Source: Escherichia coli
GTDB lineage: Bacteria > Pseudomonadota > Gammaproteobacteria > Enterobacterales > Enterobacteriaceae
DNA: 64,000 nucleotides
NCBI RefSeq assembly: GCF_045037415.1
Contig: NZ_CP173438.1
Reading direction: 5' to 3' (one strand)
In this document: one piece after another, positions 56,001 through 59,000 of the stretch
Position numbering within the stretch: position 1 is the stretch's first letter
How the letters are laid out: every line of letters starts with the position of its first letter
Made by a program: the position numbers

Positions 56001-59000
56001 GGACTTAGTCAACAGGCCGTTGCCGAGCGACTTTGCCTGAAGGTTTCCACGGTACGCGACATTGAAGAAGATAAGGCACCCGCCGATCTTGCTTCAACAT
56101 TCCTGCGCGGATATATCCGCTCTTATGCGCGTCTGGTACATATTCCAGAAGAAGAACTGCTGCCAGGGCTGGAAAAGCAGGCTCCACTACGGGCTGCAAA
56201 AGTTGCGCCGATGCAGAGTTTTTCCCTCGGTAAACGCCGCAAAAAACGTGACGGCTGGCTGATGACCTTCACCTGGCTGGTGTTGTTTGTGGTTATTGGT
56301 CTGAGCGGTGCCTGGTGGTGGCAAGACCACAAAGCTCAGCAGGAAGAGATCACCACTATGGCCGATCAATCTTCTGCGGAACTGAATAATAATCAAAGCC
56401 AGAGTGTACCGTTAGATACGTCGACAACCACAGATCAGGCTATGGCGACCACGCCGACATCACCTGTGGATACCACCGCAACCAACACGCAAACACCTGC
56501 CGTAACTGCGCCAGCACCAGCTGTTGATCCGCAACAGAATGCGGTTGTTCCACCTTCGCAGGCAAATGTTGATACCGCTGCGACTCCGGCACCAGCGGCA
56601 ACAACAACACCAGATGGCGCTGCGCCGTTGCCAACCGATCAGGCTGGCGTGACCACGCCGGCGGTTGACCCGAATGCGCTGGTGATGAACTTTACTTCCG
56701 ATTGCTGGCTGGAAGTCACCGATGCTACCGGTAAAAAACTGTTTAGCGGTATGCAGCGTAAAGACGGTAATTTGAACTTAACCGGCCAGGCACCGTACAA
56801 ACTGAAAATTGGTGCGCCAGCCGCAGTACAGATCCAGTATCAAGGGAAACCTGTCGATCTGAGTCGTTTTATCAGAACTAACCAGGTTGCGCGTCTGACC
56901 CTCAATGCCGAACAATCACCGGCGCAGTAACAGACGGGTAACGCGGGAGATTTTTCATGCATAACCAGGCTCCAATTCAACGTAGAAAATCAACACGTAT
57001 TTACGTTGGGAATGTGCCGATTGGCGATGGTGCTCCCATCGCCGTACAGTCCATGACCAATACGCGTACGACAGACGTCGAAGCAACGGTCAATCAAATC
57101 AAAGCGCTGGAACGCGTTGGCGCTGATATCGTCCGTGTCTCCGTACCGACGATGGACGCGGCAGAAGCGTTCAAACTCATCAAACAGCAGGTTAACGTGC
57201 CGCTGGTGGCTGACATCCACTTCGACTATCGCATTGCGCTGAAAGTAGCGGAATACGGCGTCGATTGTCTGCGTATTAACCCTGGCAATATCGGTAATGA
57301 AGAGCGTATTCGCATGGTGGTTGACTGTGCGCGCGATAAAAACATTCCGATCCGTATTGGCGTTAACGCCGGATCGTTGGAAAAAGATCTGCAAGAAAAG
57401 TATGGCGAACCGACGCCGCAGGCGTTGCTGGAATCCGCCATGCGTCATGTTGATCATCTCGATCGCCTGAACTTCGATCAGTTCAAAGTCAGTGTGAAAG
57501 CGTCTGACGTCTTCCTCGCTGTTGAGTCTTATCGTTTGCTGGCAAAACAAATCGATCAGCCGCTGCATCTGGGGATCACCGAAGCCGGTGGTGCGCGCAG
57601 CGGGGCAGTAAAATCCGCTATTGGTTTAGGTCTGCTGCTGTCTGAAGGCATCGGCGACACGCTGCGCGTATCGCTGGCGGCCGATCCGGTCGAAGAGATC
57701 AAAGTCGGTTTCGATATTTTGAAATCGCTGCGTATCCGTTCGCGCGGGATCAACTTCATCGCCTGCCCGACCTGTTCGCGTCAGGAATTTGATGTTATCG
57801 GTACGGTTAACGCGCTGGAGCAACGCCTGGAAGATATAATCACTCCGATGGACGTTTCGATTATCGGCTGCGTGGTGAATGGCCCAGGTGAGGCGCTGGT
57901 TTCTACACTCGGCGTCACTGGCGGCAACAAGAAAAGCGGCCTCTATGAAGATGGCGTGCGCAAAGACCGTCTGGACAACAACGATATGATCGATCAGCTG
58001 GAAGCGCGCATTCGTGCGAAAGCCAGTCAGCTGGACGAAGCGCGTCGAATTGACGTTCAGCAGGTTGAAAAATAATAACGTGATGGGAAGCGCCTCGCTT
58101 CCCGTGTATGATTGAACCCGCATGGCTCCCGAAACATTGAGGGAAGCGTTGAGGGTTCATTTTTATATTCAGAAAGAGAATAAACGTGGCAAAAAACATT
58201 CAAGCCATTCGCGGCATGAACGATTACCTGCCTGGCGAAACGGCCATCTGGCAGCGCATTGAAGGCACACTGAAAAACGTGCTCGGCAGCTACGGTTACA
58301 GTGAAATCCGCTTGCCGATTGTAGAGCAGACCCCGCTATTCAAACGTGCGATTGGTGAAGTCACCGACGTGGTTGAAAAAGAGATGTACACCTTTGAGGA
58401 TCGCAATGGCGACAGCCTGACTCTGCGCCCTGAAGGGACGGCGGGCTGTGTACGCGCCGGCATCGAGCATGGTCTTCTGTACAATCAGGAACAGCGTCTG
58501 TGGTATATCGGGCCTATGTTCCGTCACGAGCGTCCGCAGAAAGGGCGTTATCGTCAGTTCCATCAGTTGGGCTGCGAAGTTTTCGGTCTGCAAGGTCCGG
58601 ATATCGACGCCGAACTGATTATGCTCACTGCCCGCTGGTGGCGCGCGCTGGGTATTTCCGAGCACGTAACTCTTGAGCTGAACTCTATCGGTTCGCTGGA
58701 AGCTCGTGCGAATTACCGCGATGCGCTGGTGGCATTCCTTGAGCAGCATAAAGAAAAGCTGGACGAAGACTGCAAACGCCGCATGTACACTAACCCGTTG
58801 CGCGTACTGGATTCAAAAAATCCGGAAGTGCAGGTGCTTCTCAACGACGCTCCGGCATTAGGCGATTATCTGGACGAGGAATCTCGTGAGCACTTTGCCG
58901 GTCTGTGCAAACTGCTTGAGAGCGCGGGGATCGCTTACACTGTAAACCAGCGTCTGGTGCGCGGTCTGGATTACTATAACCGTACCGTTTTCGAGTGGGT

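Follow-up and report, generated by a model that had tools for sequence, protein, structure and literature searches.

The Thr/Pro/Ala-rich stretch of Escherichia coli rodZ as a very probable periplasmic, predicted-disordered tether with variable segments apparently selected for composition

A stretch of the gene rodZ (positions 56340-56680) was analyzed in a window of 64,000 nucleotides (nt) of Escherichia coli DNA (one strand of contig NZ_CP173438.1, assembly GCF_045037415.1), and all positions given here are those of the window. The stretch corresponds to residues 140-253 of RodZ and had been marked by a first-pass annotation, made from the sequence alone, as a low-complexity Thr/Pro/Ala-rich linker that varies in length between strains, is prone to slippage and can be mistaken for repeats or produce apparent indels in alignments. 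In RodZ, a bitopic cell-shape protein, it very probably forms the periplasmic, intrinsically disordered tether, which is rich in Pro and Thr (and Ala) and whose variable segments appear to be selected for their composition. The tether would join the transmembrane (TM) helix and the adjacent MreC-activating motif (residues 138-155) to the C-terminal beta domain (254-326). For two of its segments, 155-203 and 222-232, the main target of selection appears to be a polar, Pro-rich, acidic composition free of bulky or basic residues; substitutions and in-frame, codon-scale indels would pile up in them because selection there acts on composition and not on an exact sequence or length. Larger pieces would occasionally be lost by deletion between short direct repeats. 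The linker itself is a known one, and its Pro/Thr (PT)-rich region has already been named in the literature.

Thr, Ala and Pro made up 60 of the 114 residues in 140-253 (52.6%), against 47 of the 221 residues in the remainder of the protein (21.3%; Fisher p=1.5e-8, binomial 2e-13), with Thr alone at 20%. Residues K, R, H, F, W, Y and C were absent from all 114 positions, compared with 52 of 221 (23.5%) elsewhere (chance ~5e-14), and 12 residues were acidic. Shannon entropy of residues 140-253 was 3.27 bits, compared with 4.09 bits overall, and in a 25-residue sliding scan it dropped to 2.6-2.8 bits within residues 161-245 versus 3.1-3.8 bits elsewhere. The low-complexity Thr/Pro/Ala-rich character reported for the stretch was therefore confirmed. 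The bias is one of amino-acid composition and not of DNA repetition. Tandem Repeats Finder (minimum score 30) returned zero tandem repeats over 55900-56950; a repeat finder returned short dispersed direct repeats of 10-27 nt as the sole repeat type in the stretch.

The only long open reading frame (ORF) over 56340-56680 is 55923..56930 (+ strand; 335 amino acids plus stop), and the peptide quoted in the first-pass annotation is its exact translation. The product matched the NCBIfam equivalog NF008109 (PRK10856, cytoskeleton protein RodZ) at 609.2 bits against a cutoff of 208, with residues 1-331 aligned to model positions 1-334. In the window rodZ is flanked by rlmN on one side and by ispG and hisS on the other, and the order rlmN-rodZ-ispG-hisS is that of E. 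coli K-12. By megablast, rodZ gave a single match per genome in 5,425 of 5,426 complete E. coli genomes, each annotated rodZ. These assignments, with the Pfam domains listed below and the predicted disorder, uphold the identification of the stretch as the RodZ linker. The gene and its parts were delimited as follows.

55923..56930, + strand: rodZ coding sequence (ORF, NCBIfam NF008109, synteny)
55974..56159, + strand: cytoplasmic helix-turn-helix domain, residues 18-79 (Pfam HTH_25, E=2.6e-14; AlphaFold2 helices within 15-86, predicted local distance difference test (pLDDT) score 85-97)
56256..56321, + strand: transmembrane helix, residues 112-133 (AlphaFold2 continuous helix 106-154; match of 106-138 to PDB 6s0k chain k)
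56322..56384, + strand: conserved periplasmic juxtamembrane helix, residues 134-154 (95% identity, gap-free, in 110 close relatives; AlphaFold2 helix to 154)
56385..56531, + strand: hypervariable segment 1 of the PT-rich linker, residues 155-203 (58% identity with gaps in close relatives)
56532..56585, + strand: conserved island 1 in the predicted-disordered linker, residues 204-221 (92% identity, 110 close relatives)
56586..56618, + strand: hypervariable segment 2, residues 222-232 (46% identity, 17% gaps in close relatives)
56619..56681, + strand: conserved island 2, residues 233-253, leading into the beta domain (90% identity, gap-free in close relatives)
56682..56900, + strand: RodZ_C beta domain, residues 254-326 (Pfam PF13464, E=4.4e-24; seven AlphaFold2 strands, pLDDT 94-97)

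A structural model of RodZ was built with AlphaFold2 from a 60-sequence alignment. Confident helices were predicted in the helix-turn-helix domain, followed by a helix (106-154) comprising the TM segment and a periplasmic extension, and by a seven-strand beta domain (252-327; pLDDT 94-97). A single TM helix was predicted, in that this one long helix spans the hydrophobic residues 112-133; these TM limits and the bitopic topology were taken from PMC6946637. The sole solved structure that matched by sequence was PDB 6s0k, whose RodZ TM segment corresponds to residues 106-138. Residues 155-251 were modeled with no DSSP elements and a block-mean pLDDT of 46-58. Island 1 was likewise predicted to be without secondary structure (pLDDT <50), and 10-residue blocks covering 231-250, in island 2, had a mean pLDDT of 49-57. 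The disordered, low-complexity linker proper is thus predicted to be 155-251 (56385-56675) and not 140-253; the first ~15 residues of the stretch (140-154) belong to the conserved, predicted-helical juxtamembrane motif.

The periplasmic domain of RodZ has been described as bipartite, with a disordered part preceding a folded beta domain (PMC6946637). In Bacillus subtilis, nuclear magnetic resonance (NMR) of the RodZ ectodomain gave a disordered region and then a nine-strand beta domain (PMC6946637), in agreement with the AlphaFold2 model, although species and linker sequence differ and the likeness is by description only. RodZ binds MreB and MreC and is needed for rod shape (PMC6946637; PMC6052060; bioRxiv 10.64898/2026.01.05.697639). 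Its periplasmic domain is largely dispensable for that shape: RodZ 1-142 and 1-155 still yield rods (PMC6946637), and RodZ 1-155 complements a rodZ deletion (PMC6946637; PMC6052060; bioRxiv 10.64898/2026.01.05.697639). Periplasmic truncations lower MreB polymer number (Bratton et al., PMC6052060), and RodZ dimerises or self-interacts via its disordered domain according to Ikebe et al. (2018), as cited in PMC6946637. A 2026 preprint divides RodZ into helix-turn-helix, juxtamembrane, TM, 'PT-rich' and beta domains and identifies 138-155 as an MreC-activating domain that binds MreC, its function being abolished by Q140K/E141K (bioRxiv 10.64898/2026.01.05.697639). Both Q140 and E141, the MreC contact, are present in the window allele, inside the flagged interval. 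Both the role as a spacer and the self-interaction through the disordered domain are drawn from this literature; that an extended, protease-tolerant tether would bring the beta domain within range of partners at a distance from the inner membrane is our own suggestion.

Variation within E. coli was confined largely to the linker. The K-12 protein (YfgA, 337 residues) is the same gene at the same locus, with the same five-part architecture; its helix-turn-helix, juxtamembrane and C-terminal parts are identical to those of the window allele save for H136R and S259A, and the helix-turn-helix domain carries zero differences. The window allele is two codons shorter, lacking Ser-Glu after residue 157, and DNA identity between the two is ~89% over 56340-56680 and ~95% over the whole gene. 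In a protein alignment of the window allele, K-12 and two 336-residue alleles, residues 1-135 were invariant and the only substitutions outside 155-251 were H136R and S259A (the latter in the beta domain). Both indels fell within 155-251, as two codons (Ser-Glu) after NNN and one codon (Ala) after TQTP; at the DNA level these 6-nt and 3-nt indels both lie in hypervariable segment 1, and they are in frame. Across residues 134-253, 18 nonsynonymous differences separated the window allele from K-12, 14 of them in 155-203 and 222-232. In a divergence scan against K-12, 56323-56516 held the most divergent syntenic 150-nt interval in ~15 kb, with 28 of 150 positions differing (6 gap columns) against a median of 3 of 150; the only exception to this peak was where synteny breaks off near the window's end.

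Length classes were read from evenly spaced samples of the 5,425 E. coli matches together with identity bands. The gene was 1008 nt in 12 of 12 sampled rows at >=99.7% identity, 1011 nt in three sampled rows at 96.6-98.4%, and 1014 nt in 44 of 44 at 95.3-95.7%, K-12 and O157:H7 included. RodZ alleles of E. coli are accordingly 335, 336 or 337 residues long, and common length differences amount to just 1-2 codons. The whole gene was at least 95% identical in 5,412 of 5,425 genomes. With the flagged 341 nt as query, identity was >=99% in 1,093 genomes, 95-99% in 168, 90-95% in 240 and 80-90% in 3,924. Length and sequence were thus not identical across strains, and the claim of strain-to-strain length variation held. 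The window allele of the stretch is shared with Nissle 1917, 'clone D i14' and an avian pathogenic E. coli (APEC) O1:K1:H7 strain, among others.

Residue 259, near the start of RodZ_C (56697-56699, codon TCC), is Ser in the window allele. It is Ala (NFTADCW) in 110 of 110 other Escherichia/Citrobacter/Salmonella representatives aligned and in all other alleles examined. The exact 61-mer with Ser259 occurred in 546 of 5,426 complete E. coli genomes and marks one common lineage.

Between genera the same region varied most in length. In 116 cluster representatives from Escherichia, Citrobacter and Salmonella, the part up to the WWW anchor was 133 residues in 113 and the C-terminal part ([LVI][VIL]MNF to the end) was 83 residues in all 116, while the linker between the anchors took 17 lengths from 87 to 122 residues. 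In 126 full-length representatives at 30-68% identity, the linker ranged from 81 to 190 residues (standard deviation 19.9, versus 2.5 for the C-terminal part and 6.9 for the N-terminal part), and its composition was kept while its sequence drifted. Among Escherichia species and Salmonella, indels of 3-15 nt fell in segment 2.

The variation was not spread evenly. In 110 close relatives, identity to the query was 95% over 134-154, 58% over 155-203, 92% over 204-221, 46% over 222-232 and 90% over 233-253, and the folded domains (1-133, 254-327) stood at 93-98%. Ratios of nonsynonymous to synonymous divergence (dN/dS) were estimated by the Nei-Gojobori method against E. marmotae, E. albertii, E. 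fergusonii and Salmonella, with K-12 also compared. Pooled 134-154, 204-221 and 233-253 gave 0.012-0.029 between species, and the folded domains 0.022-0.060. The pooled variable segments (155-203 and 222-232) gave 0.18-0.38 between species (dS against E. fergusonii was saturated and yielded no estimate) and 0.44 against K-12. Between the window allele and K-12, the variable segments had a dN of 0.116, against 0.002 for the folded domains. The variable segments are relaxed, yet their dN/dS is below 1. Variability of the interval as a whole therefore stood for 155-203 and 222-232, but 140-154, which is part of the MreC-activating motif, and the islands at 204-221 and 233-253 are conserved.

Three points weigh against a simple tether with variable segments under relaxed selection. 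Synonymous divergence over the linker (56322-56681) is 2-4 times that of the folded parts and neighbor genes, even in the unambiguously aligned islands, and relaxed protein constraint alone is insufficient to account for it: dS against K-12 was 0.26 in the variable segments, 0.12 in the islands and 0.06 in the folded parts, and the proportion of synonymous differences (pS) was 0.05-0.09 in rlmN, ispG and hisS. Two islands are as constrained as the folded domains, which makes the linker more than a passive spacer. Disorder of the E. coli linker is, moreover, a prediction, and the NMR evidence comes from B. subtilis RodZ.

The islands at 204-221 and 233-253 are tentatively proposed as undescribed short linear motifs through which RodZ may bind itself or a partner in the periplasm that belongs to the elongasome or divisome, a proposal somewhat less probable than not. 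It is made by analogy with the MreC-activating motif at 138-155, since the islands are predicted to be unstructured and are nonetheless strongly constrained. The sequence VVSPSQ of island 1 recurs in several representatives at 50-68% identity.

The peak of divergence could also reflect old allelic lineages that were kept apart and reshuffled by homologous recombination into mosaic rodZ alleles. The raised synonymous divergence of the linker, unambiguously aligned islands included, points in this direction, as do the 336-residue alleles of T309.Ta3 and E22 (L002/L003). These equal the window allele save for a ~35-nt patch (~56500-56535), where ~12 substitutions and an insertion of 3 nt set them apart. 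The linker of E22 also resembles that of K-12 toward its 3' end, and both alleles have the look of recombinant mosaics. In the rodZ of E. fergusonii (L009), the 3' 200 nt showed 0-3 differences per 100 nt from E. coli, compared with 20-49 per 100 nt in the linker. Recombination would account for how the variants are distributed but not for why only 155-203 and 222-232 tolerate amino-acid changes and indels, and distant genera, between which recombination plays no part, show this confinement too. As a rival explanation it is considered less likely than not; exchange between old alleles is a probable contributor to the local peak, as judged from the alleles compared, and selection for composition in a disordered tether is retained as the preferred reading of where changes accumulate.

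In the E. fergusonii gene this nearly identical 3' end spans nt ~780-1014, and dS was 0.07 in RodZ_C, compared with 0.36 in the 5' part and ~1.4 in the linker. The pattern suggests that a tract was recently recombined between species, with one end inside rodZ.

Diversifying (positive) selection on the variable segments, for instance by an antagonist reaching the periplasm, was considered very unlikely. The divergence peak at 56323-56516 and the excess of dN in the variable segments over the folded domains against K-12 would fit it, but segment-average dN/dS stayed below 1 in every comparison (0.18-0.44), composition is kept as sequence drifts, and the region is periplasmic and not surface exposed.

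Slippage was assessed from the indels and repeats themselves. Segment 1 opens with (AAT)3, encoding NNN, at 56385-56393; the 6-nt indel follows directly, and this spot showed four length states among eight Escherichia/Salmonella sequences. The 3-nt insertion of the 336-residue alleles makes ACGACG, or (ACG)2. A natural 310-residue E. coli allele, P0029 (GCA_024846065.1; independent run ERR11812397), is missing 25 residues of linker. Exactly 75 nt are gone between the 8-nt copies of GCACCAGC at 56514-56521 and 56589-56596, a textbook deletion between short direct repeats. The dispersed repeats concerned are listed here.

56430..56456, + strand: repeat D1, first copy, 27 nt, encoding TDQAMATTP, in a variable segment
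56634..56660, + strand: repeat D1, second copy, 27 nt, encoding TDQAGVTTP, in conserved island 2
56511..56521, + strand: repeat D5, left copy of the short direct repeat CCAGCACCAGC (core GCACCAGC), spacing 75 nt
56586..56596, + strand: repeat D5, right copy of the short direct repeat CCGGCACCAGC, spacing 75 nt

The D1 copies, the longest dispersed repeat, are identical at 22 of 27 positions with a spacing of 204 nt, and 1 of 200 codon shuffles reached 22/27. The pair is a minor cryptic internal repeat that may have arisen by internal duplication long ago or by conversion on a small scale.

A slippage-prone, hypermutable repeat tract, resembling a contingency locus with frequent length change, would be in keeping with codon-scale indels next to (AAT)3 and (ACG)2 and with the 75-nt deletion. 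However, no head-to-tail repeat was found by Tandem Repeats Finder at score 30, the three common length classes among the sampled rows each matched one identity band or allele lineage, and length was constant inside each band, with no variation of the kind expected between close relatives. All observed linker indels are in frame, and a loss of more than 20% of the stretch was seen in no complete genome except one error-ridden assembly. The linker indels are rare, lineage-fixed, in-frame events and not the product of a hypermutable tract, an origin that we regard as highly improbable. Proneness to slippage was accordingly supported weakly: the indels beside mini-repeats and the 75-nt deletion speak for it, and the lack of tandem repeats and the tracking of lengths with lineages speak against it.

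Several candidate alleles were set aside. The 54-nt deletion allele P0074, from a single metagenome scaffold, had no clear flanking microhomology and was not used as evidence of slippage. Alleles P0003, P0070, P0072, P0073 and P0075 carry deletions in the juxtamembrane, TM or beta domain and not in the linker, come from single ENA metagenome contigs each and are likely assembly artefacts or pseudogenes; they were not counted as linker variation. In E. coli P276M (NZ_CP044293.1; L004), rlmN and rodZ are frameshifted or partial pseudogenes at 81% identity to the window; this is most likely an error-rich assembly and was disregarded.

O-glycosylation of the Thr-rich disordered segment, proposed by analogy with streptococci, is hardly credible: the RodZ of Streptococcus pneumoniae is homologous, has an extracytoplasmic disordered linker rich in hydroxy amino acids (Ser/Thr) between its TM helix and C-terminal domain and is O-glucosylated in that linker in a GtrB-dependent manner (PMC11092751), and the E. 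coli segment is rich in Thr, but GtrB/PgtC2 glycosylation has been shown in streptococci only (PMC11092751), the analogy is with a Gram-positive organism, and the window and the searches gave no pointer to it in E. coli. On the window RodZ, the streptococcal RodZ model of NCBIfam scored 33 bits against a cutoff of 375.

The surroundings of the stretch were scanned for other features. No structured RNA was found when both strands of 55400-57200 were compared with Rfam (E up to 1); the only match, to BcKCsr7, lay outside the stretch and is put down to chance, its 21 bits falling short of the gathering score of 59. An antisense ORF at 56440..56634 (64 amino acids, TTG start) was set aside, as it lies wholly within the conserved, well-supported sense gene. 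Further downstream, synteny with K-12 ends after yfgJ (62940..63155), which in K-12 is directly followed by xseA. Positions 63156-64000 match the gene encoding SinH, an intimin-like inverse autotransporter. Of 5,426 genomes, 1,749 carry this gene, 566 of them at an identity of 99% or more, approximately the number that carry the Ser259 allele.

Within a core gene that hardly varies elsewhere, the linker stands out as a local maximum of divergence and of in-frame indels. Because divergence and indels peak there, alignments and typing schemes will show apparent gaps, low-identity patches and possible recombination signals over it, with no loss of function implied. The known picture is refined in that the linker is inhomogeneous: the first 15 residues of the flagged interval fall in the MreC-activating motif, and strong purifying selection acts on two islands. 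For mutagenesis aimed at the periplasmic function of RodZ, the two islands are a reasonable choice; otherwise the finding matters little beyond annotation hygiene.

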